Assembly: GCA_964573295.1 (NCBI GenBank)
Contig: CAZNJE010000013.1
Span: forward strand, 14,099 to 78,098
From: an uncultured bacterium
GTDB taxonomy: Bacteria > Eisenbacteria > RBG-16-71-46 > CAIMUX01 > WJJG01
Length of the DNA stretch: 64,000 bases
Reading direction: 5' to 3'
In this document: positions 6,098-30,892 of the stretch, in pieces
Numbering within the stretch: the first letter of the stretch is position 1
Layout of the letters: each line of letters begins with the position of its first letter
Notes under the pieces: generated by a model
What the model was told of the DNA's origin: nothing
Databases searched by the model: none
The model's input: only the letters and a program-made list of their open reading frames with translations
Translations under genes and position numbers: made by a program

Positions 6098-6111
6098 TCC
6101 GCGCGGACCCG

Positions 6112-11641: not shown

Positions 11642-12583
11642 TCAGTCACCGGTTCTCTTGCGGTCCTTCTCCTTCTCGGTCTTCTGCACCTGGTAGTCAT
11701 CGAGCGGCTCCAGATGGGCGATGACATCGACGACCGGCTCCAAGCGCTCGCATAGCACACGTTCCACCTCCTCGGCGACCGCGTGCCCTTCCTCGACGCT
11801 GATCGAAGGATCGACCTGGACGTGCAAGTCCACGTAGACCTCGGTCTCCGAGCCCCGGGTGCGAACCTGATGGCACCCCAGCACGCCCGGGACCTGGCCC
11901 GCCACCTCGCACACCCTCTCCGGTGCCAGGCGGGCCTGATCGGACAACGTCTCGTTCGCCTTCTTGAGTACCTTCCATGCGGCACGGGCAATGGCCAGCG
12001 CCACCACGAGCGCGACGATCGGATCCGCAATGGGAAAGCCGAGCTCGGTGGCCGCCAGGCCCAGAATCACCCCCAGACTGACCAGCACGTCGCTGGCGGT
12101 ATGGCTAGCGTCGGCCAGGAGAATCTCGCTACGGAGCTTGCGGCCGACCCTGCGCTCATAGAGCGTCACCCCGATGTTCACGAGCATCGTGCCGGCCATG
12201 ATGGCATAGGAGACGAAGGAAACCTCGGGAGCCCGGTCCGGCCGCACGAGCTGATGAAAGGCGCTCTTGCCGACCTCGTAGGCCACCAGGGCGAGCATCA
12301 TTCCGATCAAGGCGGACGCGTAGGTCTCGAACTTGTGATGCCCGTAGGGATGGTCCTTGTCGGCGGGCTGAGAGGCCAGGTAAATGCCCACGAGGCCGAT
12401 GACGTTCGAGGCGCCGTCGAACAGGCTGTGGAAGCCATCGGCCTGCATCGCGATCGATCCGGAAAGGATTCCCCAGACGAGCTTCGCAATCGCGACGGTG
12501 AGGTTGAGCGCCAGGATGGCCCACAGCACCCGCCGGACCTTTAGCGTTCGGGAGGCTCTGCTGCGCTCTCCGGTTCCGCTCAT
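11642..12583 (-). CDS. Cation diffusion facilitator (FieF-like) with cytoplasmic C-terminal domain
   Basis: ADGFHSLFD, HPYGHHKFE, ADASHTASD; C-terminal domain VDLHVQVD...EGHAVAE...IAHLEP. Confidence 0.9.
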   Translation of the reverse strand: MSGTGERSRASRTLKVRRVLWAILALNLTVAIAKLVWGILSGSIAMQADGFHSLFDGASNVIGLVGIYLASQPADKDHPYGHHKFETYASALIGMMLALVAYEVGKSAFHQLVRPDRAPEVSFVSYAIMAGTMLVNIGVTLYERRVGRKLRSEILLADASHTASDVLVSLGVILGLAATELGFPIADPIVALVVALAIARAAWKVLKKANETLSDQARLAPERVCEVAGQVPGVLGCHQVRTRGSETEVYVDLHVQVDPSISVEEGHAVAEEVERVLCERLEPVVDVIAHLEPLDDYQVQKTEKEKDRKRTGD

Positions 12584-12763
12584 GTGATAGCCCATCGCCC
12601 CCCCAAGCCGGCACGTCCGCCGCGCATCGCTCGCCGGCGGCAACTCCCATGGACGGCCCATCCTACGCCTACCCATCGGCGCGGTTCAACGCTCTCCCGT
12701 GGACCGGATCCAGATTCCGAATTCGCTCCAATGGAGCCGTTCAAGATGTGGGCGTGATCGAGT

Positions 12764-14373: not shown

Positions 14374-14564
14374 AACCACGGCCTCACAGGCTCGCTGGCC
14401 GGCGCAAGCCAGATCGTCCACTCCGAGACCGTCCTGACCGCAAGCTCCTGAACCACGCTTCTTTGCCAGCACGCCTCTGGCCCTGAGCCCCTGCCTACGC
14501 TAGACTTCCGGGCATGCTTCGGCTCGGGGTCGAAGCGACGCCTTGGCGGAAGGAGAGCATTCCC

Positions 14565-16427
14565 ATGGAACATCCTCGTCTGGTGATGCCAGCGGCCGGC
14601 TTGGGCCTGCTGGCGGGCACCGCAGCGTGGGCGGGCATGGCCCTGCTGGTCGGCATGATCGTGCTGGCAGGCCTGACCGCACTGGCCGGCATGGCCGTAC
14701 CGGCCGGCGCCCAGACCATCGACGCCCAGGAGTACTGGCTCGACAATGGCATGCAGGTGCTGATCGTCGAGCGCCACGAGAGCCCAACCTTCATGGCGGC
14801 GATCGCCGCGCGGGTGGGGTCGGTCAACGAGATGACCGGCATCACCGGCATTTCCCATCTTTTCGAGCACATGATGTTCAAGGGCACGAAGACGATCGGA
14901 ACGAAGGACATCGAGCGGGACCTGGCCATCATGGCCCAGCTCGATTCGCTCCGTGCCCTAATGCGCGAGGAAGAGCGCGTGATGCGCGAGGCCTTGCGTC
15001 GCGGCCGGATCGATGACATGCACGATCCCAAAGCCAAGACGCCCCGCTACCGGGAGCTGGAGGCCGGCTTCGACCGGCTGATCGAGGAGCAGCGCGAGCT
15101 GATCGTGAAGGACCAGCTCGACGAAATCTACAGCAAGCACGGCGGCACGTTCTTGAACGCTATGACATCGAACGACATGACGATGTACTTCGTGCGGCTG
15201 CCCAGAAACAAGCTCGAGCTCTTCATGTGGATGGAATCCGACCGGTTCTTGAACCCCGTCTTCCGCGAGTTCTACTCCGAGCGCAATGTGGTGCGCGAGG
15301 AACGGCGCCTGACCCTGGAATCGACCCCCACCGGCCTCATCGACGAGGACTTCGCCTCGATGTTCTGGAAGTCTTCTTCCTACCGGTGGGAGGTGATCGG
15401 CTGGCCTTCGGATCTCTACAGCATCACCCGCGAGCAGGCCGAGGACTATTTCGATACCTACTACTCTCCCAACAACCTTACGATGATCCTGGTCGGCGAC
15501 CTCGATCCCGACGAGACGATGAAGCTGGTGCGCACCTATTTCGAGCGCTTGCCGCGCGGCACGAACGAGCCGCCCGATGTGGTCACGCTGGAGGAACGCC
15601 AGTACGGCGCCAAGCGCCTGGTCGCCGAGGCCGAGACCAGCCCGCAGGTCGAGATCTGGTACCACACCGTGGCCTGGAAGCACCCCGACAGCTACCCGCT
15701 CGACGTGCTGGCCGGCCTCATGAGCGGCAAGACCGGGCGGCTGTACAAGAAGCTGGTCGAGGAGCATGGCATCGCCAAAGCCTCGGTCTCCGGAGGCGGC
15801 CGCATGATGCCCGGCGGCGACAACCTGGCCGTCCGGGCCGGCCAGGATTCACGCAAGTATGCCGGCGCGTTCCAGATCAGCGCCGAAGGCGTCTCCGACA
15901 CGCGCTCCGAGATCCTTGAAGAGGCCGTCTACGAGGTCATCGAAGACCTCAAGACCCGCCCCGTGCCCGAGCAGGAGCTGCAGAAGGTGAAGAACCAGAT
16001 GCAGGTGCGCGACATCCGATTCATGGACATCATGTCGGGGCTTGGGATCATGTTCCGTCTGGCCCCCAACGCGGCGATGGGAGACTGGACCGAGGCGAAC
16101 CGCGGGCCCGAGAAGCGCGCGCAGGTAACGGCCGAGGACGTTCGCAGGGTCGCCAACACCTACTTCGCCGACGATCAGCGCAACATCCTCAACATCAACC
16201 CCAAGGCCGGCACCGAAGTGGCCTCGGAGGATGACGGCGATGCGCGCAAAGCGCAGATCGTAGAGCGCATCAAGGCGATCAAGGATCCCGCCCAGCTCGA
16301 ACAGATGATCGGCATGGTCCAGATGGGACTCGGCCAGGTCGAAGACCCCGAGCGCAAGGCCCAGATGGAAGAGATGCTCCAGATCGCCAGCGAACACCTG
16401 GAATCGCTGAAGTCGCAAGAGAAGTAG
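14565..16427 (+). CDS. M16 family zinc peptidase, catalytic subunit
   Basis: Inverted motif HLFEH, NAMTSND, ERNVVREERR; signal peptide; SD AAGGAGAG. Confidence 0.9.
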   Translation: MEHPRLVMPAAGLGLLAGTAAWAGMALLVGMIVLAGLTALAGMAVPAGAQTIDAQEYWLDNGMQVLIVERHESPTFMAAIAARVGSVNEMTGITGISHLFEHMMFKGTKTIGTKDIERDLAIMAQLDSLRALMREEERVMREALRRGRIDDMHDPKAKTPRYRELEAGFDRLIEEQRELIVKDQLDEIYSKHGGTFLNAMTSNDMTMYFVRLPRNKLELFMWMESDRFLNPVFREFYSERNVVREERRLTLESTPTGLIDEDFASMFWKSSSYRWEVIGWPSDLYSITREQAEDYFDTYYSPNNLTMILVGDLDPDETMKLVRTYFERLPRGTNEPPDVVTLEERQYGAKRLVAEAETSPQVEIWYHTVAWKHPDSYPLDVLAGLMSGKTGRLYKKLVEEHGIAKASVSGGGRMMPGGDNLAVRAGQDSRKYAGAFQISAEGVSDTRSEILEEAVYEVIEDLKTRPVPEQELQKVKNQMQVRDIRFMDIMSGLGIMFRLAPNAAMGDWTEANRGPEKRAQVTAEDVRRVANTYFADDQRNILNINPKAGTEVASEDDGDARKAQIVERIKAIKDPAQLEQMIGMVQMGLGQVEDPERKAQMEEMLQIASEHLESLKSQEK

Positions 16428-16463: not shown

Positions 16464-18110
16464 ATGGTGTCCACCCATCTGCCCACCTGTGCGAGCACCT
16501 ACGCGTCCGGCGGCGCGACCGCCTATGCATCCACCCGTACGTCCACCCACGGAACGCGCGGGGTCTCGGCCCGCGCGTCCCTTCGAGCCGCTGTCTCCGC
16601 GCACGCGTTTCTTTGGACCACGCTGATGGCCTGCGCGCTGATCAGCCTCGCGCCGGCCTTCGCCCCAGCCTTCGGGCTGGGCTCCGCGCCGGCGCACGCC
16701 GGCGAGATCGCCGACCATCCCGACCAGCTCACCTTCCCCGAGTTGACCTTCACCCCGCCTGAGCCGGCCGATTACCGCCACGAGCTCGACTGTGGCGTCA
16801 CCGCCTACATCGCCGAGAACCATACGGTCCCGACCTTTGAACTCACGATCCTGGCGCGCACCGGATCGATGTACGAGCCGGTGGAGAAGGCCGGCCTGGC
16901 CACGATGACGGGCCACCTCATGCGAAACGGCGGCGCCGGCGAATTGACGGCCAGCGAGTTGGACGAACGGCTCGCCTACCTGGCGGGCACGATCGATGTC
17001 CGGATGCTGGACGACCAGGCCCGCGTCTCGCTGTTCTGTCTATCCAAGGATGTGGACGAGGGGTTGGATTTGCTGCGCAAGGTGCTGCGCGAGCCGCTCT
17101 TCGATCAAGCCATGCTGGAACGTCACCGGACCGACATGCTTGCCGAGCTCGAGCAAGGCAATGCCTCGACGGCGGCCATCGAAGATCGCGAGTGGGCCTT
17201 CTTGCTCTACGGCCACCATCCGTGCACGAACCGCTACCGCCGAACCGCCGCCTCGCTGGAATCGATCACGCGCGAGGATGTCAAGAGCTTCCACGCCCGT
17301 TTCTTCTTCCCTGCCAACTTCGTCGTGGCCGTCTCGGGCGACTTCGAGATTCGCGCTGCCATCGAAAGGCTGGAGAATCTCTTTGCGGACTGGCCGTCGC
17401 CGCGAATCATGATCCCGCCGGTCACCGATCAGGTCGCCGAGCCGGCACCCGGCGTCTACATGATTCCGAAGGCCGACGTGAATCAGTCCCGCGTCCGGAT
17501 CGGGCATCTGGGCGTGACGCGTGACATTCCCGAGCAGTATGCGCTCATGTTGATGAACGAAATCTTGGGCGGCGGCGGCTTCAGCTCGCGCATCACCCGT
17601 CGGGTGCGCTCCGACGAGGGTCTGGCCTACAGCACGGGAAGCCGCTTCGACCGCCCGGTAGATTATCCGGGCACGTTTCGCGCATGGTTGCAGACGAAAC
17701 ATGCCACCGCCGCGTTCGGCTCGCGTCTGATCGTCGACGAGATCGAGCGGATCCGCGACGAGCGCTGCTCCGAAGACGCTCTCGAGCTCGCGAAGGCCAG
17801 CTTCATCGGCAACCTGGTCAACCCGTTCAGCAGCAAGAGCAGCATCGTGGAGACCTTCGCCCAGGACGACTTCACCGGCCGGCCCGACGATTACTGGCAG
17901 GACTACCAAGAAAAGATCCAGTCGGTCACGCCCGAGCAGGCGCAGGAGGCCGCCCGGAAGTTCCTGCATCCCGATGAGCTGATCTTCTTGGTGGTGGGAG
18001 ACCCCGAGGCCGTCCAGGCAGGGTCGGAGAAGCACCCCGACCGTTTCTCCGACTTCGGGAAGGTCACGGTCATGCCCCTCCGAAACCCGATGACGTTGGC
18101 CTTCGAGTAG
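16464..18110 (+). CDS. M16 family peptidase, non-catalytic partner subunit
   Basis: No HxxEH; ILGGGGFSSRITRRVRSDEGLAYS motif; secretion signal. Confidence 0.85.
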   Translation: MVSTHLPTCASTYASGGATAYASTRTSTHGTRGVSARASLRAAVSAHAFLWTTLMACALISLAPAFAPAFGLGSAPAHAGEIADHPDQLTFPELTFTPPEPADYRHELDCGVTAYIAENHTVPTFELTILARTGSMYEPVEKAGLATMTGHLMRNGGAGELTASELDERLAYLAGTIDVRMLDDQARVSLFCLSKDVDEGLDLLRKVLREPLFDQAMLERHRTDMLAELEQGNASTAAIEDREWAFLLYGHHPCTNRYRRTAASLESITREDVKSFHARFFFPANFVVAVSGDFEIRAAIERLENLFADWPSPRIMIPPVTDQVAEPAPGVYMIPKADVNQSRVRIGHLGVTRDIPEQYALMLMNEILGGGGFSSRITRRVRSDEGLAYSTGSRFDRPVDYPGTFRAWLQTKHATAAFGSRLIVDEIERIRDERCSEDALELAKASFIGNLVNPFSSKSSIVETFAQDDFTGRPDDYWQDYQEKIQSVTPEQAQEAARKFLHPDELIFLVVGDPEAVQAGSEKHPDRFSDFGKVTVMPLRNPMTLAFE

Positions 18111-18364: not shown

Positions 18365-19810
18365 CTAGGGCCCGCTGTCCGGCTCACGCCCGGATGAATA
18401 CCACACGCGGTACCCGGTGGGGTCCACGGTCAGCTCACCTTGCAGCGAGCCCTCCGCCACGGGGTGGAACTGCCCCTCGCGCCATTCGTACCACGCCCGG
18501 GCCGCCAGGCCCGGGGGCAACCGAAACGTAGGGCGCAGATCCGAGAGGTTCACCGCGCAGAGCATCAGCTCGCCTTCCAGCGAACGGGCATAGACCAGAA
18601 TGTCCGGATGCTCTGCGGGAATCCGTTCCAGCGAACCCCGCCGCAGGACGGCGCTGCTCCCGCGTAGCCTCGTGACATCCCTGTACAGATCGAGGTAGTC
18701 CGGATTCCCTTCGGCCCACGCCACCGACCACGGTTCACTCGGCGTCGCCGGGGTGCGGTCGGCGATCTCCTGTCCCATCAGAAGCTGAGGCGTTCCGGGT
18801 ACGGTCATCAGGAAGGCGGCATAGCCACGCACATACGGCCAGCGATAGAGCGTGCTCGAGCGCGGGCTGAAGTGATCTTCCAGGTAGATCACGGTCGTCT
18901 GGTTGGGGCCCGGAAGATCGGCGGTGGCACTCAGCGCAAGCCAGAGTTCCTCGGTCAGGCCGGGTTCGGCCATGTCCTCCATCCGGCACTCGTCGAGCCG
19001 CTCCTTGAGCCCAGACGCATAAATGGCGTGAAACCCGAGCTCGAGCGATCGCGGGTCGGCCGACTCGGCCATGAAGACGAGGCTTGGGTAGGTTTCGTGA
19101 AGATTCAAGATGAGCGCTTGCCAGAAGTCGTCCGGGGCGAGGGTGGCCAGCGCGCACCGAAAGCCATCGACGCCGGCCTCGCGTACCCAATGCTTGAGTG
19201 TGCCTTCGAGATACTCGCGCGCCGCGGCGTTGTCGAAGTCGAAATCCGCAATGCCCGTCCAGCGGGCCATCTTGCGCGTCAGGACGCCGGTGGCATCGCG
19301 GCGGAACCAGTCCGCATGCTCGTCGATCCGCACATGATTCACGGCCGCCACCGGCAAGACCACATCCAGCAGCACGCGCAACCCGCGCTCGTGTGCCGCC
19401 GTGACGAAACTCCGTAGCGCGTCCAGGTCCCCGAACTCGTCGGCTACGGCTGCGTGATCCCGAACGGCATAGAGATTCCCCAGTTCCCCGTCCCGCTCGG
19501 GCTCGCCGGTCGGGAAGATCGGGGCCAGCACGAGGTTGGCCACGCCCAGGTCCGAGACGCGATCTAGCGCTTGAGTGGCCCCATCCAGATCACCGCTCGA
19601 TGAGAATGCCCGCAAATGCAGCTCGTAGAGCGTGTGGCCCATGAACCAGTCCAGCCTCCCAGGATCCTGGTTGTGGGCCTCGACCGCACCTTCGGTCTTA
19701 CGATCCCCGCCGCATCCGGCGGTGAGAAGAAGGGCGGCGCCGAACAGGAGGGCGGCCCACACAGGCGGGCGGCGCAAGGCGTCCAGCGGGCAGGTTTCGT
19801 GCTCAATCAT
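18365..19810 (-). CDS. GH13 alpha-amylase-fold lipoprotein, predicted catalytically inactive
   Basis: Lipobox LLLTAGC; YELHLRAFS, GNLYAVRDH, FGDLDALRSFVTAAHERGLRVLLD, GVDGFRC, PQLLMGQE. The conserved Asp positions read RCAL and EDHF. Confidence 0.85.
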   Translation of the reverse strand: MIEHETCPLDALRRPPVWAALLFGAALLLTAGCGGDRKTEGAVEAHNQDPGRLDWFMGHTLYELHLRAFSSSGDLDGATQALDRVSDLGVANLVLAPIFPTGEPERDGELGNLYAVRDHAAVADEFGDLDALRSFVTAAHERGLRVLLDVVLPVAAVNHVRIDEHADWFRRDATGVLTRKMARWTGIADFDFDNAAAREYLEGTLKHWVREAGVDGFRCALATLAPDDFWQALILNLHETYPSLVFMAESADPRSLELGFHAIYASGLKERLDECRMEDMAEPGLTEELWLALSATADLPGPNQTTVIYLEDHFSPRSSTLYRWPYVRGYAAFLMTVPGTPQLLMGQEIADRTPATPSEPWSVAWAEGNPDYLDLYRDVTRLRGSSAVLRRGSLERIPAEHPDILVYARSLEGELMLCAVNLSDLRPTFRLPPGLAARAWYEWREGQFHPVAEGSLQGELTVDPTGYRVWYSSGREPDSGP

Positions 19811-20768
19811 CCTCGTCCTTCTCCTGGTTTCTAGACGCGGGCTTGGGAGGAGAGATCCGCCGCCGGGGCGGGGAGTCTCCGGCCTTCTCTTGGCTGTCAC
19901 GCAGGTAGTAGATCGACCGTGTCGGATCGGGGTCCAGACGCACGGTGCTGCGCTCGAAGACCTCGCTGAGCGCGTTCAACCACTGTAGATGCCGCGTGAT
20001 CTCGGGCGATCGTCGGTACTCGGCCGCCAAACGCGCGAAGGCGACCGAGTCGCTGCTCGCCCGTTCCCGGGCCTCGGTGGCGTGGGCCTCGGCGGCCGCG
20101 ACGCTTGCACGCGCCTCGCCACGCGCGCGCGGGACGACCGCGCCGGCGTACCCGCGGGCGTCCTGGACGATTTCCTGCTTCTGCGAGCGAGCGCTCGCCA
20201 CACGCTGGAAGGCCTCACTCACCGTCTCCGGCGGAGAGACATTCGCCAGTTCCACCGAGATGATGCGCACCCCCAGGTCGAGCCGGTCGGCCACCCGCTG
20301 GACCGAGTCACGCACCGTCTGCCTCAGGAGCGACTGCCCGCCGGTCATGGCGATATCTACGCTGACCGCGGCAAGTTCCCGGCACAGGCTTTCCTGCCCG
20401 ATGGCCCGCAACACACGATCGAGCTCCCGCACACCGAATCTCGAACGATCGAGGTCGTAGATATCGTAGCTGGCGATGGCGCTGACCATGACCAGGTTGG
20501 CATCCCCGGTAAGGAGTTCGCGCCCCTCTACGCCTACCTGCAGCTCCAGACCATGGACCTCACTCACTCGCGCCCGCGTGACCCGGTCGATGGGGTAGGG
20601 CAAATGGACATGCACCCCCGGTTCCGCCTGCCGTGCGATGACCCGGCCCCAGCGCAGGACCAGGGCCTCCTCACCGCTGGAGAGGGAGTAGACACCGCTG
20701 GCGAACCACGCGGTCAATGCGGCCCCTACGAGCAGCCCCACGAGCAGCCGGGTGTGATTACGGCGCAT
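19803..20768 (-). CDS. hflK: HflK-like SPFH protein
   Basis: TM helix then GEEALVLRWG, PGVHVHLPYPID, LLTGDANLV, PPETVSEAFQRV, ARGEA coiled-coil; stop overlaps the next ATG (ATGATTGA). Confidence 0.85.
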   Translation of the reverse strand: MRRNHTRLLVGLLVGAALTAWFASGVYSLSSGEEALVLRWGRVIARQAEPGVHVHLPYPIDRVTRARVSEVHGLELQVGVEGRELLTGDANLVMVSAIASYDIYDLDRSRFGVRELDRVLRAIGQESLCRELAAVSVDIAMTGGQSLLRQTVRDSVQRVADRLDLGVRIISVELANVSPPETVSEAFQRVASARSQKQEIVQDARGYAGAVVPRARGEARASVAAAEAHATEARERASSDSVAFARLAAEYRRSPEITRHLQWLNALSEVFERSTVRLDPDPTRSIYYLRDSQEKAGDSPPRRRISPPKPASRNQEKDEDD

Positions 20769-21804
20769 GTTGCCGCCCTCCCTTCGCGGCTGGTCCGAAA
20801 CCCTCCGCCGACCCGCGTCCCTCCGCCGACCCGCGTCCCTCCGCCGACCCGCGTCCCTTCGCCGACCCGCGTCCCTTCGCCGACTCGTATCCCTCCACTG
20901 CCCGGGATCCGGACTCCGCGGGCACGTCGCTCTCAGCACCCGGCTGCAGGGCTTCCAGGAGCGGGGAGTTCTCGTCCAGCACGATGGTGGTTTCTTCGTC
21001 GAAGATCTTCTTGTAGGCCTCCAGAGAGCGTACGAAACGATAGAAGGACAGGTCTCCCCGATAGGTGTCGCCGTAGATGCGCATGGCCTCAGCTTCCGCG
21101 GTGCCACGGATGACACCGGCCTCGTGCTCGGCCTCGGCCAAGATGGTCCGGCTGGCCAGATCGGCCTCGGCGCGAATGCGCAGCGCCTCCTCTTCCCCTT
21201 CCGCGGCGTACCTGCGCGCGATGCGGTTTCGTTCGGCGCGCATGCGCTTGTAGAGCGCGGCCTTGTTCTGTTCGGGCAACATGATCTGCTTGACGAACAC
21301 ACGCTCGATGTGAATCCCCATGCCCTCGCTGGCATCCCGCAGGGCCGCGGTCAAATCTTCGACCAGCCGGTCGAATGCGAGCTGCCCGGCATCGATATTG
21401 ACCAGCGCATCGAGATCGCATTGACCCAGCAGCATGCCCGTGAAAGAGGTCATCAGATCGGTCAACCGCAGTTCCAGGCCCTTCACGTCGCGCACCGTCT
21501 TGATGAAAACGATCGGATCGATGATGCGGTAACAGATCGCCTCCGCCAGAACGACGTTCTTCTTGTCCGCCGTCAAGAATTCCGAAGGCCGCGGTTCGAT
21601 CACCGCGAGACGCGCGTCCAGACGGCGTGGCTGATCGATCGGCGCGGGCAGCTTCCAGTAGAGACCCGGCTGGGTGATAACGCGCACCGGCTTGCCAAAG
21701 CGCTGCACGACAGTGATCTCCCCTTGCTGGGAGACGACCGTGCAGAGGAGCAGTGTCACGCCGGCCAGGACGACCAATGGAATCAGGGATAGACGTTTAT
21801 TCAT
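20758..21804 (-). CDS. hflC: HflC-like SPFH protein
   Basis: VVQRFGKP, PGLYWKLP, FLTADKKNVV, RMRAERNRIARRYAAEG, FYRFVRSLEAYKK. Confidence 0.9.
   Translation of the reverse strand: MNKRLSLIPLVVLAGVTLLLCTVVSQQGEITVVQRFGKPVRVITQPGLYWKLPAPIDQPRRLDARLAVIEPRPSEFLTADKKNVVLAEAICYRIIDPIVFIKTVRDVKGLELRLTDLMTSFTGMLLGQCDLDALVNIDAGQLAFDRLVEDLTAALRDASEGMGIHIERVFVKQIMLPEQNKAALYKRMRAERNRIARRYAAEGEEEALRIRAEADLASRTILAEAEHEAGVIRGTAEAEAMRIYGDTYRGDLSFYRFVRSLEAYKKIFDEETTIVLDENSPLLEALQPGAESDVPAESGSRAVEGYESAKGRGSAKGRGSAEGRGSAEGRGSAEGFGPAAKGGRQHAP
20801..20890. repeat. 18-bp tandem repeat x5 (CCCTCCGCCGACCCGCGT) in the HflC C-terminal tail
   Basis: Seen directly; encodes (K/E)GRGSA repeats. Confidence 0.95.
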
Positions 21805-23611
21805 AGTCGAGGTTTTCCTCTAGGGACGAAAGAACGATGCGCCGCTGGGTGGCAGCCGGCAAAATGGTGATCCGCTTTCCGGCGAGCACTTCCTCGATCG
21901 CGTCCCAGTGCAGGCGAATACGATGAACATTCTCGTCGATTCCGAAGGCGTGCTGTTGCAAGCGAAACCGGTCGGCTCCGCCCAGGGCAGCCACAACCCG
22001 GGTGATCGAATCGGCCTCGGCCGCCTTGACCAGAGCAACGGCTTGGCCACGGCTGCGGGGCACCAGTTCGTTGCTGTATTCGTGCGCCCGATGGATGACC
22101 TCGCTCTTTGTCTCCTTGGCGCTCACCACGGCCCGGTACTGTGGTACGACCGGAAGGGGCGGATGGGCTTCGAGCGAGTAGACCTGGTGGATGGCCACGC
22201 CGATGTCCAGTTCGGCCGCCCGCCGTCTCAAGCGAGGCAGCAGAGTGTCCTGAAGCCGCTGGCGATCGGACGTCAGCAAGCCGTCGAGGGGGATGTGCCG
22301 CTGCACGGCATGGACTTCATGGGCGAAGGCGGCCCGGAGGATCTCGACGGGATCCCGGGCTTGGAGCCCAAAGCGCACGGGATCGATGATCCGATAGTAG
22401 CACACCACGCGACTGTCGACGAGATTCTCATCGCCGGTCAGCGTCAGTGCCTCCTCGGGACGTGTGCGGAAGCGCCCCTGTGTATGCATCGCTTCCCATA
22501 GATTGGCGGAAAGCGAGTCATCCTCGGCATTGAGGTCGGTGCGGAATCCGAGCTCCAGGCGAGAGAGAAGACCGGTACCGATGATCTCGACCGTCCCGAA
22601 GGGCGGCGGCGCGTGAAGGTGCAGGCCGGGGCCGTGCACCGCCACCGCGCGTCCCAGGCCGATCTCGACACCTTCCTCCCAGGGCTGGACGCTGTAGAAC
22701 CCAAGCCCCCCGTAGAGCCCCAGGATCAACACGACCAGTGCGACCAGAACGAGCGGCGCATGACGTCTGATCCACGCGTCCTGGAGAAAGAACGGGGGAC
22801 GGATGCGTGCGATCCGTTCGTTCAAGCGTCGCCCACTCGCCCGCAGGCTTCGTCCGAGCTCGACCGGCCACCGGGGCAAGACGATCGCTCGCACGACGCG
22901 CTGCAGGCGCAGGGGCAGCCGTTCGAAGCCCCGGGCCAGGCTCTGCTGCATCGCCCGCCCCGTCTTCGCCAGCGAGGCGGGCCAGCGGACGCGCAGTTGG
23001 CCAACCGTGCGGATCAAGAGACGGACGGTCATATTGAGGATCGCCAGTCCGATCAAGGCCGTCATCGCGCGTTCGATGTCCAGGCCGAAATAGCCGACCA
23101 GCAACGTGACCCACACCCCGAACGAGGTCAGAAAGTCGGAATGGGTATGCGCCCCTTCGGCTTCGAAGAGCGGAGAATCGTACCGCCGTCCGATGCGCTT
23201 CTTGTAGCCGGCCATGACGAAGGTCACGACCAGCGCGCAGGAGATGCCGACAAACGCGATCACCTGATTCGGGTCGCGGGCCTGGATGAAGCGGTCGGGC
23301 GGATTCTGGACGACGTAGGTCAGAAGTTCCACGGCGCCCACGCCCATGACCCCGGCCACGCCCAGGCATAGGAGCGATTCGGCGAACCGCCCCCAGCTCT
23401 TCGATAGATAACGGTGGTTGACCAGGATCGACAGCAGCACGGTCGCGGTCACACCCAGGTCGCCCACCGAGTGGAACGTATCGGCCAGCAATACCGTGCT
23501 ACCGGTCAGACGAGAGAGACCATACAGAAGTACGATCAGCCCGGTGTCGGCGCCGATCGCGAGGAGCGAGGCGCGCACGAGGGCCTTGAAGCGAATGGAC
23601 TCCGTGGACAT
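21797..23611 (-). CDS. Fusion of a CDF cation-efflux transmembrane domain and an HflK/SPFH domain
   Basis: N-terminal LLADTFHSVGD and EGAHTHSD (CDF TM2/TM5); C-terminal FYSVQPWEEGV, LTGDENLVD, AHPPLPVVPQYRAVVSAK and VPRSRGQA (HflK); one uninterrupted ORF. Confidence 0.85.
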   Translation of the reverse strand: MSTESIRFKALVRASLLAIGADTGLIVLLYGLSRLTGSTVLLADTFHSVGDLGVTATVLLSILVNHRYLSKSWGRFAESLLCLGVAGVMGVGAVELLTYVVQNPPDRFIQARDPNQVIAFVGISCALVVTFVMAGYKKRIGRRYDSPLFEAEGAHTHSDFLTSFGVWVTLLVGYFGLDIERAMTALIGLAILNMTVRLLIRTVGQLRVRWPASLAKTGRAMQQSLARGFERLPLRLQRVVRAIVLPRWPVELGRSLRASGRRLNERIARIRPPFFLQDAWIRRHAPLVLVALVVLILGLYGGLGFYSVQPWEEGVEIGLGRAVAVHGPGLHLHAPPPFGTVEIIGTGLLSRLELGFRTDLNAEDDSLSANLWEAMHTQGRFRTRPEEALTLTGDENLVDSRVVCYYRIIDPVRFGLQARDPVEILRAAFAHEVHAVQRHIPLDGLLTSDRQRLQDTLLPRLRRRAAELDIGVAIHQVYSLEAHPPLPVVPQYRAVVSAKETKSEVIHRAHEYSNELVPRSRGQAVALVKAAEADSITRVVAALGGADRFRLQQHAFGIDENVHRIRLHWDAIEEVLAGKRITILPAATQRRIVLSSLEENLDYE

Positions 23612-23805
23612 ACGCTGCGGCCCACCGCGCTCGCATGTTTCGGGCTCGTGTGTACCCTGTTTGGCGGTACCGTGCTCGGGTCTGTCAGTTGCAGGCATCC
23701 GGCCCCCTCGTGGGTCTCAAAACCACGATACGGGGACCCCGCGCATCGGCGCGGAGCCCCCGCAAATCAGATCAATGCGTAGGACGATTCCAGCCTAGAT
23801 CGCGC

Positions 23806-25575
23806 TTACTGGAGCACGGTCAGCCGCTTCGTCTCGATGTAACCGTTGACGTCGAGCTTGTACCAGTAGGTACCGCTGGCGCAACGAAGGCCGTTGGCGT
23901 CCGTGCCGTCCCACATCAGCGAGTGGGCGCCGGCCGACATCGTCTGATCGGTCAATGTCCGAACCGTACGACCCTGCACATCGAGAATCTCCAGCGAGGC
24001 GTGCACCTCGTTGGGCAGATCGAACTTGATGTTGGTGGTCGCCCGCACCGGATTCGGCCAGTTGGCGTACAGCAGCCCGCCGGAGCGAACGTCGTCGTTC
24101 GTGCCCGGTTCGAACGGCTCGTCGTCCAGAATCGGCGTCGGCTCGTCAAACAGGGTGAAGATCGCCAGCGCAAGCTCGGTGTTGTCCAGGTAGTTGCCCA
24201 CCACCGGGTCGAGCTCATCCGCGTAGGAAGCCAGGACGTTCGAGCCATAGCCCTTGTAGAAGAACGGAATGGCCTGGTTCGTATGTCCCGCCGAATTGGT
24301 CGGATTCTGCCAGTCGTCCCCGGGAGCACTGTAGAAGTAGAAGCCGGGAACTACGCCAGGGCCGTTGTCGGCGACCGGAGCGAACCAGGTATCGGGGTTC
24401 TCCGGATCGACGCCATCACCCCACAAGAAGCCGGTCTCGTGGTCACCGGTGACCACGACCAGTGTCTCGTTCCAGTTGCTGTGGGTCTCAACCCAGTCGA
24501 CGACCGCCTGGAAGGCGTTGTTCCAGTCATTCTGCTCTTCGATCTGGCGACCCATCAGGCGGGCGTGACCCGCCCAGTCGATGGCGCCACCCTCGATCAT
24601 CAGGGCGAAGCCGTCGGCATCCTGGCCCAGGACGTTCAGTGCACCGCGCGCCATCGTCTCGAGCGTGGGGACATTCGCGATCATCGGATCGTGGTAAGGG
24701 GGGAGGGTGGTGTTGTAGTTGCCGCCGTAGGGCACGCTGTCGCCGCTGCGGTTGAACTGCAGGGTGTGCGAGACCTGGGTCACACCAAAGACCTTCTCAG
24801 CCTGGAGAGAGCCGTCGGCCAGCGCCTCGAAGTCGGCCTTCTCATCCATGAAGGTCCAATCGGTCATGCCGCTGGACAGATCCGTCCACAGATCGTAGCC
24901 GCCAACATACTTCCAGTCACCCGGCGCCTCCGGGTCGCCGGGATCCCATTGGCCGTCGGCGTCGTAGTTCGGGTGACCGCAACCCATCACGACTTCGGCA
25001 TCACTGGCGGCCAGCTCTTGGGCGATTTCGGCGTAGTTGTTGCGGCTCTCGTTGTGGGCGACGAAGGTGGCAGGGGTCGCATGGCTCAGCTGCACACTGG
25101 TAATGACGCCGGTAGCCTTGCCAAGTTCCTCGGCCCGCTCGAAGATGTGGAAAAGCGGCTCGCGCTGGCCCGGACCGTCACCGATGCTCATGCCGATTGA
25201 TCCCTTGTAGGTCTTGACGCCCGCCGACATGGCCGTACCCGCCGCCGCCGAGTCGGTGGCGTAGTTCTGCATGTACCACCAGTCGTTCCAGGCCATGTCC
25301 GGATCATAGCCGTAGATGCCGACGAAACCACCGCCACCGTACGGGGGGGTCTCGCCACCTTCGAGGTACATGTAGTTCGTCATGCCGCAGTAGTTCCACG
25401 TCGGATCCACCTCGTACTCCATTCGCTCGCCCTGGTAGTAGGCCGTGGCGTCCAAAGTGGACTGGCCCCAACCATCGGAAATCATGATGATCACGTTCTT
25501 GAGCTCGGCCTGGGCGGTTCCCACCGCTAGAACCAGCGCCAGCACGACGAGCAGTCCCTTGATGCTTCCTCGCAT
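23806..25575 (-). CDS. phoA: Secreted alkaline phosphatase with FlgD-like C-terminal domain
   Basis: IMISDGWG, TDSAAAGTA, HATPA, IEGGAIDWAGH, VTGDHETG; tail NWPNPV...WDGTDANG..CASGTYWYKL. Confidence 0.9.
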   Translation of the reverse strand: MRGSIKGLLVVLALVLAVGTAQAELKNVIIMISDGWGQSTLDATAYYQGERMEYEVDPTWNYCGMTNYMYLEGGETPPYGGGGFVGIYGYDPDMAWNDWWYMQNYATDSAAAGTAMSAGVKTYKGSIGMSIGDGPGQREPLFHIFERAEELGKATGVITSVQLSHATPATFVAHNESRNNYAEIAQELAASDAEVVMGCGHPNYDADGQWDPGDPEAPGDWKYVGGYDLWTDLSSGMTDWTFMDEKADFEALADGSLQAEKVFGVTQVSHTLQFNRSGDSVPYGGNYNTTLPPYHDPMIANVPTLETMARGALNVLGQDADGFALMIEGGAIDWAGHARLMGRQIEEQNDWNNAFQAVVDWVETHSNWNETLVVVTGDHETGFLWGDGVDPENPDTWFAPVADNGPGVVPGFYFYSAPGDDWQNPTNSAGHTNQAIPFFYKGYGSNVLASYADELDPVVGNYLDNTELALAIFTLFDEPTPILDDEPFEPGTNDDVRSGGLLYANWPNPVRATTNIKFDLPNEVHASLEILDVQGRTVRTLTDQTMSAGAHSLMWDGTDANGLRCASGTYWYKLDVNGYIETKRLTVLQ

Positions 25576-25882: not shown

Positions 25883-28800
25883 CTACTTCGTCTGGACGGC
25901 GGTCCGCCGCCCGCGCCCGAACATTCGGTAGATCGCCGGCAAAACGATCAGCGTCAGGATGTTCGCCGAGACCACCCCGCCGATCACCACGGTCGCCAGG
26001 GGCCGCTGCACCTCCGCGCCGATGCCGGTGTTGAGCGCCATGGGCACGAAACCCAGAGCGGCGACCATCGTTGTCATCAGCACCGGGCGCAGGCGCATCA
26101 GCGCGCCCTGCTCGATCGCTTCATCGGGCGGCTCGCCCGACTCCAGCCGCCGCCGCATGGTGGAGACCAGGACAAGCCCATCGAGCATCGCCACGCCGCA
26201 GACGGCCACAAAGCCGATCCCGGCCGAGACCGTGTAGGGCATGTCACGCAGCCAGAGGGCCAGGATCCCGCCCACCGCCGCAAAGGGGGCGCCGGTAAAG
26301 ATGATGAACGCGTCCCGCACCGAGTTCATGCTGTTGTAGAGCAGGAACAGAATCAGAAGCAGTGCTGCCGGTACGATAAGCCTAAGACTCCTGCGCGCCC
26401 GCTCCATATGCTCGAACTGCCCCGCCATGCGCACGAAGTAGCCCGGCGGCATGTCGACCTCCGCCGCAATTCGATCGCGGGCCTCGGCCACGAAGCTACC
26501 CACGTCACGGCCGTCGACGTTACATTGGACGACGATCCGGCGCTTCTGCCACTCCCGCGTGACCGTCGCGGGGCCTTCCACGTGCTCGATGGTCGCCAGT
26601 TGATCCAGGGGAATGCGCGCGCCGGCGGCGGTGGGTACGAGGATCCTTCGCAGGGCGTCCGGGTGATCCCGGTAGCGTTCGGGCAAGCGCAGCACCAGGT
26701 CGAACCGGCGCTGGTCCTCTCGAATCTCACCCACCCGCACGCCGCCGACCGCTTCGACCAACTCCAGCACATGCTGGGCCGAGACGCCGTGGCGCGCCAC
26801 GGCGTCCTGGTCCACCCGCACCTCGAGTATGGGCTGCCCGGTGATCTGCTCCACGTAGAGGTCGGTGGCGCCCTCGATCGAATCGAGGACATCGGCCACC
26901 TGGTCGGCGGTTTCGCGCAACCGGCCGAGGTCGTCGCCGAAGATCTTGACCCCGATGTCGGTGCGGATGCCGGCAATCATCTCGTTGACGCGCATCTCGA
27001 TCGGCTGCGTGAAGATCATGCGCATCCCGGGCAGACCTGCCAGGTCGGCGCGCATGTGCTCGACCAGCTCATCCTGCGTACTCGCCCGCGTCCACTCATC
27101 TCGCGGGGTCAGGGTGATGAAGATGTCGGTCAGCTCCATCCCCATCGGGTCGGTGGCCACCTCCGCTGTGCCGGTACGCGCCCACACATCGCGAACCTCG
27201 TCGGGAAACTTCTCGAGGATCACCTTCTCGATCTGCGTGCCGTAGCGGATCGACTCCTCCAGCGACACGCCGGCCAACCGGACGGTGTTGATGACGATGC
27301 CTCCCTCCGATAGCCGCGGAATGAATTCCGATCCGATGGTGAGCCCCAACGCCGCGGCGCCGGCCACCACCAACACCGCGCCGGCGATGACCGCACGCCG
27401 CCGCTGCAGCACGAAGTGGATGACCGGCCGGTAAAGGCGCTTCGCCAAGCGCGCGAACCAGCTCTCGCTGAATGTCTGTCCCCGCTTGAGCGCCAGGCTG
27501 GCCAGCACCGGCATGAGAGTGAGCGAGAGAATCATCGAACCCGCCAAGGCGAACAGCAGGGTCAGCGCCATCGGCCGGAAGAGCTTGCCCTCGATCCCTT
27601 CCAGAGCGAGCACGGGTAGGAAGACGACGGCGATGATGAGCTCGCCGTACATCGTGGGCATGCGCACCTCGAGGGCCGCGTCGCGCACCGTCTCTAGAAC
27701 CGAACGACGCTGATCTCCCTCGCAGCGCTCATCTCCCTCGGAAAGCTTTCTGACGCTATTCTCCACCATGACGACCGAGCTGTCGACGAGCAGACCGAAG
27801 TCGATTGCCCCCAGGCTCAGCAGGCTGCCGGCGATGCCGAAGCGAGCCATCCCCTGAGCCGCGAAAAGCATCGACAGCGGGATCGCCGAGGCCACGATCA
27901 AGCCGGCGCGGATGTTGCCGAGGAAGGCGAAGAGCACCGCGATCACCAAAAGGGCGCCAAGCAACAGGTTCTCCTCGACGGTCCTGAGCACTTCGTCGAC
28001 GAGCTCGGTTCGTTCGTAGACCGGCCGGATCTCGACCCCCGCGGGCAGGATCTTGCGGATCTCCTCCATCCGCTGCTGCAGGCGGGTCGTCACCTCGTGG
28101 CTGTTCTCGCCCATCAGCATGAAGCCGAGCCCCAGCACGACCTCACCCTCGCCGTTGGCGGTCACCGCCCCGCGGCGAATCTCGTACCCCTCGCGGACCT
28201 CGCCAATGTCGCGCACGTGGACCGGCACGCCGTCGTGGGCGGTGATCACGATGTTGCCGATCTCCTCGAGGCTGGTCGTGAGGCTCACCCCCTGGACCAG
28301 ATGAAGCTCGCCGGCTTGCTCCAGGTACCCGCCGCCGACATTGAGATTGTTGCGCGCCAGGGCACCGGCGACCTCGTCGAAGGTGAGCTCGTACTTCGTC
28401 AGTCGCACGGGATCGATCATCACGTGGAACTGCTTCTTCTCGCCGCCCCAGGTGTTGACCTCCGCCACCCCGGCGACCGACTGCAATCGCGGCTTGATGA
28501 CCCAATCGTGCAGGGTGGTCAGCTCCCGCAACGTGTGCGTCTCGCTGGAGAGGACGTAGTGGTAGATCTCCCCCAGTCCGGTCGCCACCGGCCCCATCTG
28601 GGGCTGGGCGATGCCCTCGGGCAGCTGGGCCCCTTGCAGACGTTCCATCACGAGCTGGCGGGCGAAGTAGATATCGGTGCCGTCTTCGAAGATCACGGTC
28701 ACCTGCGACAGTCCGAACTTCGAGATCGAGCGGACCTCCTCCAGGCCCGGCAACCCCGAGATCGCCCGTTCGACGGGGAAGCTGATCTGTTGCTCGATCT

Positions 28801-28978
28801 CCAGCGGCGAGAGGGCCGGGGCGGTCGTGTTGATCTGCACCTGGACCGGGGTCGTATCCGGAAAGGCATCCACAGGCAGGCGCAGCACGGTGTGCACCCC
28901 CACCCCGATCAACACCAGGGTGAGAACGATGACCGTCAAGCGGTGATTCAGGGACCAGTTGATGATCGCGCTCAGCAT
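25883..28978 (-). CDS. czcA: CusA/CzcA-family heavy-metal RND permease
   Basis: LPVDAFPDTTPVQV, GAIDFGLLVD, LFRPMA, RLRPVLMT, EVQRPLATVVIGG. Confidence 0.95.
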   Translation of the reverse strand: MLSAIINWSLNHRLTVIVLTLVLIGVGVHTVLRLPVDAFPDTTPVQVQINTTAPALSPLEIEQQISFPVERAISGLPGLEEVRSISKFGLSQVTVIFEDGTDIYFARQLVMERLQGAQLPEGIAQPQMGPVATGLGEIYHYVLSSETHTLRELTTLHDWVIKPRLQSVAGVAEVNTWGGEKKQFHVMIDPVRLTKYELTFDEVAGALARNNLNVGGGYLEQAGELHLVQGVSLTTSLEEIGNIVITAHDGVPVHVRDIGEVREGYEIRRGAVTANGEGEVVLGLGFMLMGENSHEVTTRLQQRMEEIRKILPAGVEIRPVYERTELVDEVLRTVEENLLLGALLVIAVLFAFLGNIRAGLIVASAIPLSMLFAAQGMARFGIAGSLLSLGAIDFGLLVDSSVVMVENSVRKLSEGDERCEGDQRRSVLETVRDAALEVRMPTMYGELIIAVVFLPVLALEGIEGKLFRPMALTLLFALAGSMILSLTLMPVLASLALKRGQTFSESWFARLAKRLYRPVIHFVLQRRRAVIAGAVLVVAGAAALGLTIGSEFIPRLSEGGIVINTVRLAGVSLEESIRYGTQIEKVILEKFPDEVRDVWARTGTAEVATDPMGMELTDIFITLTPRDEWTRASTQDELVEHMRADLAGLPGMRMIFTQPIEMRVNEMIAGIRTDIGVKIFGDDLGRLRETADQVADVLDSIEGATDLYVEQITGQPILEVRVDQDAVARHGVSAQHVLELVEAVGGVRVGEIREDQRRFDLVLRLPERYRDHPDALRRILVPTAAGARIPLDQLATIEHVEGPATVTREWQKRRIVVQCNVDGRDVGSFVAEARDRIAAEVDMPPGYFVRMAGQFEHMERARRSLRLIVPAALLLILFLLYNSMNSVRDAFIIFTGAPFAAVGGILALWLRDMPYTVSAGIGFVAVCGVAMLDGLVLVSTMRRRLESGEPPDEAIEQGALMRLRPVLMTTMVAALGFVPMALNTGIGAEVQRPLATVVIGGVVSANILTLIVLPAIYRMFGRGRRTAVQTK

Positions 28979-29081: not shown

Positions 29082-30737
29082 CTACTGGCCCGGATGCACC
29101 TCGCAACAACCGGCACCCAGGTTGCCGCGCAGGATCTCGGTCTTGAGCAGGAAGCTTCCCTGGGTGACGACCTCGTCTCCGGGGGCGATGCCCGCGAGCA
29201 CCTGGTAGGACCCGCCCTGGGCGTCGCGCAGCTGTACCGCGCGGGGCTGGTAGACCGCATCGCTCTGCTTCACGAAGACCACATTGCAGCAGCCCTCCCA
29301 CTGGACGGCCGCCTGGGGAACGACCAGGGCCGGTTCGCGATCCCGCACCAGGACATTCGCCTCCGCGAACATGTGTGCCTTCAGCAGGCCGGTGGAGTTG
29401 TCGAACTCGGCGCGGGCCCGCAGCGTGCGCGTGCGCGGATCCAGCTCCGCGCTCACCCAGCTGATGTAGCCGCCGAAAACCCGCTCGGGCAGACTGGCGA
29501 CGCGCAAGGTCACGGTCTGTCCCTTGGCAATCTCATCGAGGTCGGCCTCGTAGACATCGAGGATCGCCCACATCTGGGTCACATCGGCGACCGCGAAGAG
29601 CGGCTTGGCCGGACCGACGACTTCACCCACGACGGCATGCCGCTCCACGACCACCGCATCGAAGGAGGCGGTGATCAGGTAGCGGGGACTCGTGTCCTGG
29701 GTTCGCGTGATGGCGTCGATCTCGTCGGCGGAGAGCCCGAAGCTCAGGAGCATCTGCTCGGCTTCGGCCAGCTCGATGCGACTCTCGGCCAGTTGGGTCT
29801 CCATCTCGAGCAGCACCTTCTCGCTGGATAGGCCGCTCGCGTGCAGCTCGGCCTCGCGCTCGTGATTCTGCCTCCGGAGCTTGGTGACCGCCCGCGCTTT
29901 GAGGTAGTGCGACTTCGCCACGCCCAGGTCGGGCGAGGTGATGACGGCCAGCACGTCGCCGGCTTCGACCTCATCGCCCAAGTCGGCATGGACCTCCGCC
30001 ACGATCCCCGGCATCTGCGGGGCCAGACGGGCGTAGAGGTTGCGGTTGTAGTCGAGCACGGCATTGCACTCGACCCACCGGCTGACCGGCTGAACCCGCG
30101 CCGTGGCGAACTCGAGTCCCGCCTCTTGGGCAATCGCCGGAGAAGCGAGGCGTACGATCGAGTTCACCTTGGCGCACACGGTGGCCGGCGCCTGGTGCAT
30201 TCGGGAAGGTGTGGCCGCACCCAGATCCCAACCGGACCCGCCAGCCTGTTCGCCGCCCCCGGTCACTGGAGCGGGAGACACGTTGCCGCCCGCCGCGGCC
30301 TGGACGGGAGACCAGGCACCAGCGCCAGCTTCCGCGTGGGCGGCCGAGCCTGCCCCGCCGCCACCCGCGTTCGCCGGGGCCACCTCGGGATTGCAGATGG
30401 CGCACTGCGACTCGGGCCGCTCGTGCGGGGCACACCAATCCCCCACCGCCTTGAACGCGGGGATGAGAGCGGAATTGCACTGGTAGCACAAAGCCTCCGG
30501 CACGCCGTGGCCGGGGCACGGTCCCATCGACTCGATCAGGGACGGATTGCAGAAAGGACACTGGGCCTCGGCGATCTGGTGCTCGGCGCAGAATGCACCC
30601 TCTTGGGCCGACACCGACGCGTCGGATCCCAGCACCTCGGCCTCGCGGCCATCCTGCCGGTCGCAGCCGAGCTGCGCCGCGGCCAGGATCAGCAGCAAGA
30701 TCACGAGAGACCATCCCAGGGATTGGATGCGCTTCAT
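29082..30737 (-). CDS. CzcB-like RND periplasmic adaptor lipoprotein with N-terminal Cys/His motifs
   Basis: Lipobox AQLGC; three CxxH..xE..CxxC motifs; MFP core; C-terminal VVTQGSFLLKTE...GCC. Confidence 0.9.
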   Translation of the reverse strand: MKRIQSLGWSLVILLLILAAAQLGCDRQDGREAEVLGSDASVSAQEGAFCAEHQIAEAQCPFCNPSLIESMGPCPGHGVPEALCYQCNSALIPAFKAVGDWCAPHERPESQCAICNPEVAPANAGGGGAGSAAHAEAGAGAWSPVQAAAGGNVSPAPVTGGGEQAGGSGWDLGAATPSRMHQAPATVCAKVNSIVRLASPAIAQEAGLEFATARVQPVSRWVECNAVLDYNRNLYARLAPQMPGIVAEVHADLGDEVEAGDVLAVITSPDLGVAKSHYLKARAVTKLRRQNHEREAELHASGLSSEKVLLEMETQLAESRIELAEAEQMLLSFGLSADEIDAITRTQDTSPRYLITASFDAVVVERHAVVGEVVGPAKPLFAVADVTQMWAILDVYEADLDEIAKGQTVTLRVASLPERVFGGYISWVSAELDPRTRTLRARAEFDNSTGLLKAHMFAEANVLVRDREPALVVPQAAVQWEGCCNVVFVKQSDAVYQPRAVQLRDAQGGSYQVLAGIAPGDEVVTQGSFLLKTEILRGNLGAGCCEVHPGQ

Positions 30738-30892
30738 GGCTATTCTCCTCCCGATGTGCACGCGAGCGTGCCCGCTGATCGACACGTGCGTGCGCATGAC
30801 GGCGGCCTACTCTGCTCGGATGCCTGCCGGCAAAGAGTCCGCCCGTTGTCTGTTCGGACAAGAAAGGTTGGTGGTGATGGCGAGACCGGGTA

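Follow-up and report, generated by a model that had tools for sequence, protein, structure and literature searches.

A 64,000-nucleotide stretch of DNA from an uncultured Eisenbacteria bacterium (contig CAZNJE010000013.1, positions 14,099 to 78,098; hereafter the window) carries a minus-strand gene whose predicted product begins as a metal transporter belonging to the cation diffusion facilitator (CDF) family and continues, in the same reading frame, into an SPFH domain resembling that of HflK. This raises the questions of whether such a protein is real and, if it is, why a metal transporter should be joined to a membrane scaffold. We find that the fusion is widely conserved, that it is the first of three consecutive SPFH genes, and that the same clade of HflK is also joined to P-type ATPases. 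We consider it reasonably likely, though well short of certain, that the fusion protein carries the transporter in a three-protein SPFH membrane assembly of HflK/HflC type, and that this assembly tethers metal exporters.

Both parts of the window protein match Pfam models above threshold, as a preliminary description made from the sequence had proposed: Cation_efflux (PF01545) at residues 45–233 scores 66.8 bits against a cut-off of 26.6 and covers profile positions 2–195 of 198, and Band_7/SPFH (PF01145) at residues 336–514 scores 26.7 bits against 23.6. The cytoplasmic dimerisation domain that usually follows a CDF transmembrane domain had been said to be missing, and indeed no match to ZT_dimer (PF16916) was found in the protein, whereas the ordinary CDF of the window (11642..12676, minus strand) matches both Cation_efflux and ZT_dimer. 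The start of the gene does need revision: the position first proposed, 23611, corresponds to an internal methionine, and the likely start is the ATG at 23698, which has a Shine-Dalgarno sequence (GAGGGGG) just 5' of it and adds an N-terminal extension, MPA.DR.EHG, that is common to the window protein and an 85%-identical homologue (P0002).

One conceivable explanation for this architecture is that a sequencing, assembly or frameshift error has merged neighbouring CDF and hflK genes. The possibility had been raised at the outset, when a stop or frameshift in the linker was named as what would refute the fusion, and nothing more speaks for it; the reading frame is open through the linker. A word-indexed search gave 24 full-length clusters with PF01145 and PF01545, 35–100% identical and from independent assemblies, and after an exhaustive profile search the CDF and SPFH parts were found together in 123 of the 176 proteins that we classified. 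At least 120 further clusters, all full length and with both domains, are listed when the search starts from a distant member (P0037), and PF16916 is present in none of the 24 or the 120 listed relatives. The 28 proteins obtained in a profile search with a broader alignment (A2) were those that the first search had already given. Full-length homologues of the fusion reach down to about 20% identity, one fusion lies on the finished plasmid of a cultured bacterium, and the basic character of the linker is kept across the family, its length ranging from 20 to 95 residues and its net charge being positive in 104 of 114 proteins. Because the fusion is conserved, we regard a joining artefact as refuted and its probability as negligible.

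The preliminary description had also allowed that the architecture might turn out to be common and functionally described. Common it is, with hundreds of clusters, but we found no functional description: literature searches on SPFH, HflK or Band 7 together with CDF, cation efflux or P-type ATPase gave no account of such fusions. Relatives found from P0037 are labelled Eisenbacteria, Chloroflexi and Actinobacteria among others, and the species-representative genomes that carry the window subfamily include Aminicenantes, Zixibacteria, Desulfobacterales, SAR324, Ignavibacteria and Spirochaetes. NCBI names the relatives 'FtsH protease activity modulator HflK', and one of them (P0014) only 'cation transporter'; hundreds of fusions are thus annotated by one half, with the other half of the protein hidden.

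The motifs HSVGD and HTHSD, which had been read as an intact transport site, are near-invariant across the family. The H, D, H and D of this site (site A) are kept in 119, 118, 121 and 121 of the 123 fusions respectively, and among the 77 sequences of alignment A6, H76 and D80 are invariant and H184 and D188 are kept at ≥90%. The site remains invariant or nearly so in alignments that reach about 20% identity, with H76 and D80 invariant in A2 as well as in A6. On the evidence of these alignments the transport site is under selection. An H-D/H-D tetrad of this kind is found in ZnT, CzcD and ZitB.

We then considered how the two halves are arranged relative to the membrane. A hydropathy profile has six helices, a charged stretch and a strongly hydrophobic seventh helix (peak 2.61), and two AlphaFold models were made, the first with a mean pLDDT (the model's confidence score) of 67.6 and the second, from the 77-sequence alignment, of 84.4. 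In the second model the CDF helices span residues 27–65, 68–96, 100–131, 143–172, 176–203 and 209–235, three linker helices lie within 241–298, and helix 7 occupies 314–331 with pLDDT 96–97; an alpha/beta SPFH region, a 70-residue helix (515–585) and a final helix follow. The top match of this model in the PDB, using Foldseek, is HflK (7vhq_E, E=4e-15), and the CDF part matches YiiP (5vrf_A) with a root-mean-square deviation (rmsd) of 3.2 Å over 208 columns; matches to SLC30A10 and to several ZnT structures were obtained too. A profile search of PDB sequences likewise gives HflK (7vhp, 9e-40) and FieF (2qfi, 3e-8), and in alignment helix 7 coincides with the membrane anchor of E. coli HflK (residues 79–100). 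The linker segment that we tested (residues 205–292 when counted from the internal methionine at 23611, with the first part of helix 7 included) has 19 K/R and only 4 D/E residues, and should therefore be cytoplasmic. The basic linker, extra helix and SPFH domain that were reported to follow the CDF part are thus borne out by charge count, hydropathy and the model.

Because both termini of a CDF domain are inside and helix 7 crosses the membrane, the SPFH part is predicted to be periplasmic. This is the topology of HflK itself (PMC12005517). In effect, the protein can be viewed equivalently as an HflK with a transporter in place of its N-terminal tail, or as a CDF with a leash, an anchor and HflK in place of its C-terminal domain. 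The original statement that the C-terminal domain has been replaced by SPFH is correct in that the one is gone and the other follows, but the substitution is not like for like, the CDF C-terminal domain being cytoplasmic and the SPFH part predicted to be periplasmic. The SPFH part therefore cannot take over cytoplasmic metal sensing, and at most supplies oligomerisation.

The fusion gene does not stand alone. The ATG of the next gene, coding for an HflC-like protein, overlaps the fusion stop by 8 nucleotides, and the ATG of a second HflK-like gene (HflK2), which has neither transporter nor insertion, overlaps the HflC stop by 11 nucleotides; each partner gene has its own Shine-Dalgarno sequence, that of HflK2 being GGGAGGG. 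Judged from these overlaps, the three genes are translationally coupled. The order fusion, HflC, HflK2 is found with tblastn, using the window proteins, in all related CDF-type loci long enough to show it (L001–L021, L023 and L025), and is identical in loci of the distant subfamily (L047–L052), while the neighbours outside the cassette are kept only in the two closest relatives. In a Pfam census of neighbours no family occurs in more than four loci, and only scattered metal regulators and transporters were seen. A separate peculiarity of the HflC-like gene is an 18-nucleotide tandem repeat (20801–20896, 5.3 copies) in its tail, coding for GRGSA(E/K) hexapeptides just before the overlapping HflK2 start.

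The exhaustive search also gave proteins of about 1000 residues in which a P-type ATPase is followed C-terminally by the same HflK module; 21 of the 176 classified proteins combine this module with DKTGT. Four full-length examples that we scanned are P1B heavy-metal ATPases (TIGR01525, 541–611 bits against a cut-off of 346), all with CPC in the metal-binding helix, and they exceed the cut-off of the Cd/Zn subfamily model and, for the most part, that of the Cu model as well. No N-terminal metal-binding domain is present in the ATPase fusions (P0087, P0092 and 19 others). In the metagenome loci that carry them the next gene is again HflC-like, followed by an HflK2-like gene wherever the contig reaches. 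The ATPase-type cassettes (L026–L043) have in addition a fourth conserved gene of about 155 codons, whose product has a hydrophobic segment in its N-terminal part and a conserved domain of some 110 residues (e.g. L029:10759-11247, L033:10752-11234 and L042:5538-6017); this gene matches no Pfam family, and occurs neither in the CDF-type loci nor in the window.

The HflK modules of both kinds of fusion share an insertion, R.E.GFRT...YLWE..H..GRY..EE..LTGDEN, and an HPP motif; E. coli HflK has neither of these, nor do the HflK2 and HflC partners. In the window protein the core of the insertion is LWEAMH (residues 400–405), and W401, E402, H405 and H512 are kept at ≥90% in alignment A6. A rough neighbour-joining tree, which has no support values, separates three orthologous groups (HflC partners, HflK2 partners and transporter-linked HflKs) and places the CDF-fused and ATPase-fused HflKs together, with E. 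coli HflK and stand-alone HflKs outside. One HflK clade is tied to two unrelated metal pumps, by fusion or within an operon.

These relationships bear on an alternative explanation, that the cassette is a variant HflK/HflC modulator of FtsH, in which the CDF domain serves mainly as a metal sensor, or as a tether by which FtsH activity or access to substrates is coupled to metal status, or as an exporter under FtsH turnover, and would not be a working exporter that the cage organises. There is no FtsH-like open reading frame or further SPFH gene in the 64-kb window, and neither Peptidase_M41 (FtsH) nor NfeD is among the 25 most frequent neighbouring Pfam families (127 open reading frames in 28 CDF-type loci, and 73 in ATPase-type loci). 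The missing linkage is not decisive, since E. coli itself has hflKC unlinked to ftsH. In favour of a role with FtsH, which is itself a Zn metalloprotease (PMC12005517), HflK is the nearest match of the SPFH part, the HflC-like partner passes the curated HflC cut-off, and relatives carry FtsH-related NCBI names. However, both pumps, different as their mechanisms are, retain full transport sites (DKTGT and CPC among them in the ATPases), for which a mere sensor would have no need, and the fused clade lies apart from canonical HflK with an insertion of its own. We think this explanation unlikely.

Plasmids provide both fused and unfused examples. The conjugative plasmid NZ_CP018172.1 of Aquibium oceanicum B7 codes for a 515-residue fusion (Cation_efflux at 8–198, Band_7 at 243–414), the only full-length CDF-HflK among 72,556 plasmid records in PLSDB; HflC and HflK genes follow it, and a two-component system, an Nramp gene and a heavy-metal ATPase lie beside it. 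None of the plasmid matches is a Pseudomonas record. Plasmid pMSMB2035 of Burkholderia ubonensis (L056) has overlapping genes for HflK, HflC, an SPFH protein and a P-type ATPase with CPC, and its 631-residue HflK (5107–7002) contains RLWDTPH and VHPP; by gene content and motifs this locus is an unfused form of the transporter-linked cassette. The N-terminal 300 or so residues of the same HflK form a polytopic membrane region that matches no Pfam family and may be another fused membrane module. On a Vibrio parahaemolyticus plasmid (L055, NZ_CP013250.1, 5845–9232) an hflK-hflC pair is translationally coupled to the Na+/H+ antiporter gene nhaA.

Taken with the structural predictions, these arrangements suggest how a transporter-bearing SPFH assembly could work. 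The CDF domain, with its complete H-D/H-D site, would export a divalent metal from the cytoplasm against protons, and the chain would then run through the basic cytoplasmic leash and helix 7 into the periplasm. There the HflK-like module would co-assemble with the HflC-like and HflK2 proteins into a ring or cage, by homology to the HflK/HflC cage of 12+12 subunits, which would keep a number of exporter domains together in a single membrane microdomain and supply the oligomerisation normally given by the CDF C-terminal domain. The benefit of such a cage could be scaffolding, confinement of the exported metal, its hand-off, or control of turnover, the last being FtsH-dependent. Metal-related genes around the cassettes fit such a role: the RND pump and ordinary CDF in the window, the Nramp and heavy-metal ATPase genes at the Aquibium cassette, and DtxR-type, Fur-type, FeoB and DUF1007/NicO neighbours elsewhere. 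Ring assembly, transport activity, its direction, the identity of the metal and the benefit of the cage are what we infer from these comparisons.

The substrate is probably Zn2+ (with Cd2+ or Co2+), and Fe2+ or Mn2+ is possible. Zn2+ is favoured by the HD/HD pattern, which the preliminary description had plausibly linked to Zn selectivity, by how the fused ATPases score on Cd/Zn-family models, and by a Zn link in Pseudomonas, described below. The choice is no more than probable, because DtxR-type, Fur-type and FeoB genes are neighbours of relatives and because the best CDF family matches of the fusion are weak. Assignment of the metal from family models was tried and rejected: for every specific CDF equivalog the score falls well short of the cut-off, and the fused ATPases pass both the Cd/Zn and mostly the Cu models.

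A different role, which we consider improbable, is that the module would act under metal limitation, loading exported metalloenzymes in the periplasm or aiding uptake. CDFs are established exporters from the cytoplasm, and the contexts of the window and Aquibium fusions resemble efflux or resistance islands; such a supply role would nevertheless fit some of the neighbours. In the window, L001 and L002 the gene directly upstream of the fusion codes for an alkaline phosphatase, of a Zn-enzyme family, and near other relatives there are DtxR-family repressors (three CDF-type loci), Fur-family regulators (two) and FeoB (two), L050 and L052 being examples of loci with metal-homeostasis neighbours; DUF1007 occurs in two loci, one of them with NicO. 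In the window, however, the phosphatase gene is separated from the cassette by a strong terminator-like structure, a 16-bp GC-rich hairpin with a T-run (23729–23764), which is better read as the terminator of that upstream gene. A further argument for supply comes from Pseudomonas aeruginosa, in which the P1B ATPase gene hmtA (PA2435) adjoins PA2437-2439, annotated as HflC or HflK family (PMC4542158). In a znuA mutant these genes are up 5.6- to 14-fold, and there is a candidate Zur site (PMC4542158); proteins of the cluster rise in Zn depletion (PMC11761036), and HmtA is reported to be a Zn/Cu importer (PMC8456098). Against this, we note that the Pseudomonas cluster is only possibly analogous to the window cassette, to judge from published descriptions.

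Several observations weigh against the proposal that the fusion belongs to an HflK/HflC-type assembly of metal exporters. The fusion protein falls below the equivalog cut-off of the HflK model TIGR01933 (106.1 bits against 159.4, with an E-value of 2e-30), which the relatives P0037 (231.8) and P0087 (236.1) exceed, and below that of the full-length CDF model TIGR01297 (64.8 against 82.35). Its weak best CDF family matches, MamB, MamM, FieF and MntE, conflict with the Zn cue of the HD/HD site, and the Fe/Mn regulators or FeoB near several relatives are a second conflicting cue. The ATPase fusions have a non-canonical motif in helix 6, the last helix, HQxxS (HQxxSLxVxxNSLRLL), which is unlike the usual Zn-type or Cu-type signatures. 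The Aquibium fusion lacks both the insertion and the HPP motif, so this signature is not essential to the architecture. The three SPFH paralogues may or may not form a single ring, and the CDF domains might lie inside or outside it. Finally, the induction of the P. aeruginosa cluster by Zn starvation and the report of HmtA as an importer argue against a simple detoxification role (PMC4542158, PMC11761036, PMC8456098).

A more speculative extension of the exporter-assembly proposal, to which we give little credence at present, is that the three proteins form a closed dome like that of HflK/C over the periplasmic face of the membrane, into which the tethered pumps, CDF or P1B ATPase, discharge metal, the clade-specific His and Glu residues of LWE..H and HPP lining a receiving site in the enclosed nanocompartment. 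If this were true, the dome would be a chamber dedicated to handling metal, where it is sequestered, buffered or passed on to clients in the periplasm, and a bacterial SPFH cage would have its first defined biochemical role besides FtsH control.

The features of the locus are collected in Table 1. The region is rich in metal efflux genes, given the RND pump and adaptor upstream of the alkaline phosphatase gene and the ordinary CDF. The pump and adaptor, two genes upstream of the cassette, are kept in L001 only, and the wider upstream context is partly kept in L002. A riboswitch or other leader RNA 5' of the fusion was considered and rejected, an Rfam search of 23600–23900 giving only sub-threshold matches on the hairpin. 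Two M16 (insulinase-type) peptidase genes lie near the cassette on the plus strand (14514–16427 and 16464–18110).

Table 1. Positions in the 64,000-nucleotide window of the fusion gene, its parts and the genes around it.
Feature	Position	Strand	Remarks
CDF-HflK fusion gene	21797..23698	minus	One unbroken open reading frame, 633 residues including the conserved N-terminal extension; TAA at 21797–21799
Six-helix CDF transmembrane domain	23000..23566	minus	Residues 45–233; PF01545, model helices, match to YiiP fold
Helix 2 motif HSVGD (H76, D80)	23459..23473	minus	Residues 76–80
Helix 5 motif HTHSD (H184, D188)	23135..23149	minus	Residues 184–188
Basic helical linker, predicted cytoplasmic, in the position of the ZT_dimer domain	22760..22999	minus	Residues 234–313; model helices 241–260, 263–273, 276–298
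Seventh transmembrane helix, equivalent to the single HflK membrane anchor	22694..22759	minus	Residues 314–335; hydropathy, model, alignment
HflK-like SPFH1/SPFH2 and long coiled coil, predicted periplasmic	21800..22693	minus	TIGR01933; PDB HflK 7vhp; Foldseek 7vhq_E
SPFH1 insertion of about 40 residues with near-invariant LWE..H	22415..22546	minus	Specific to the transporter-linked HflK clade
HPP motif	22157–22171	minus	EAHPP, residues 510–514
HflC-like partner gene	20758..21804	minus	348 residues; TIGR01932 160.7 bits, above cut-off of 134.4
HflK2, second HflK-like gene	19803..20768	minus	321 residues; TIGR01933 157.5 bits, cut-off 159.4; no transporter or insertion
Alkaline phosphatase gene (Zn-enzyme family), secreted product	23806–25575	minus	With FlgD_ig and Por_Secre_tail; directly upstream of fusion
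CusA/CzcA-family heavy-metal RND pump gene	25883–28978	minus	TIGR00914 1215 bits
CzcB/CusB-like adaptor gene	29082–30797	minus	Beside RND pump gene

What bacterial SPFH cages do and which clients they organise is a long-standing question, and their deletion gives weak phenotypes (PMC12005517, PMC13086221). In the cassettes described here one HflK clade has on at least two occasions become covalently joined to a presumed client, the clients being two unrelated metal pumps, and the two partner SPFH genes have been kept. This names a class of client, metal exporters, and offers a testable system that includes a cultured host, A. oceanicum B7. For CDF transporters it is an example, provided by nature, of the regulatory and dimerising C-terminal domain being dispensable, with an external scaffold perhaps taking over its function. 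The results that add most to the preliminary description are the conserved cassette of three SPFH genes and the presence of the same HflK clade on P1B-type ATPases. Both component families are well known; the fusion, the obligatory second HflK paralogue and the interchangeability of the pumps appear to be undescribed.

Of known systems, the HflK/HflC-FtsH complex of E. coli (PDB 7vhp, 7vhq, 7wi3, 9cz2) has the same single anchor with the N-terminus inside, periplasmic SPFH1 and SPFH2 domains, a long coiled coil and an HflC-type partner, and surrounds membrane clients with a cage built from 12 heterodimers (PMC12005517; PDB 7vhp, 7wi3). The fusion differs in having a six-helix transporter for the N-terminal tail, a third SPFH gene (HflK2) that is always present, the insertion of about 40 residues with LWE..H, and HPP instead of RPP, and a link to FtsH is not seen in the window or among the 25 most frequent families in the neighbourhoods of its relatives.

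The transporter half shares its six-helix fold (rmsd 3.2–4.8 Å over about 205 columns) and the site on helices 2 and 5 with YiiP/FieF and ZnT proteins (PDB 5vrf, 8f6e, 8xma). Unlike these, it has no ZT_dimer domain, so the C-terminal metal sites are absent, and its C-terminus runs into helix 7 and a periplasmic domain. MmCDF3 of Maricaulis maris is a CDF naturally without a cytoplasmic domain that binds Zn and Cd (Russell & Soulimane 2012, as summarised in PMC4995437). It thus resembles the fusion in lacking the C-terminal domain but is a stand-alone protein with no SPFH fusion or partner genes.

A possible published parallel in gene content is the hmtA cluster of P. aeruginosa, in which PA2437-2439 form the PaFlo5-7 operon, with only subtle deletion phenotypes (PMC13086221). 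As described, it combines a P1B ATPase with three SPFH genes, is Zn-responsive and has a layout like that of the B. ubonensis plasmid locus, and is possibly analogous; it differs in being unfused and induced by Zn starvation, and in having a pump reported to be an importer. The P. aeruginosa literature draws no mechanistic connection between the SPFH operon and the HmtA pump. Complexes of an SPFH oligomer with a channel or a partner membrane protein are also known, namely stomatin-aquaporin 1 (PDB 9zd2) and QmcA-YbbJ (PDB 8z5g). In those the clients are held non-covalently, whereas here the metal pump is covalently fused to the SPFH protein.

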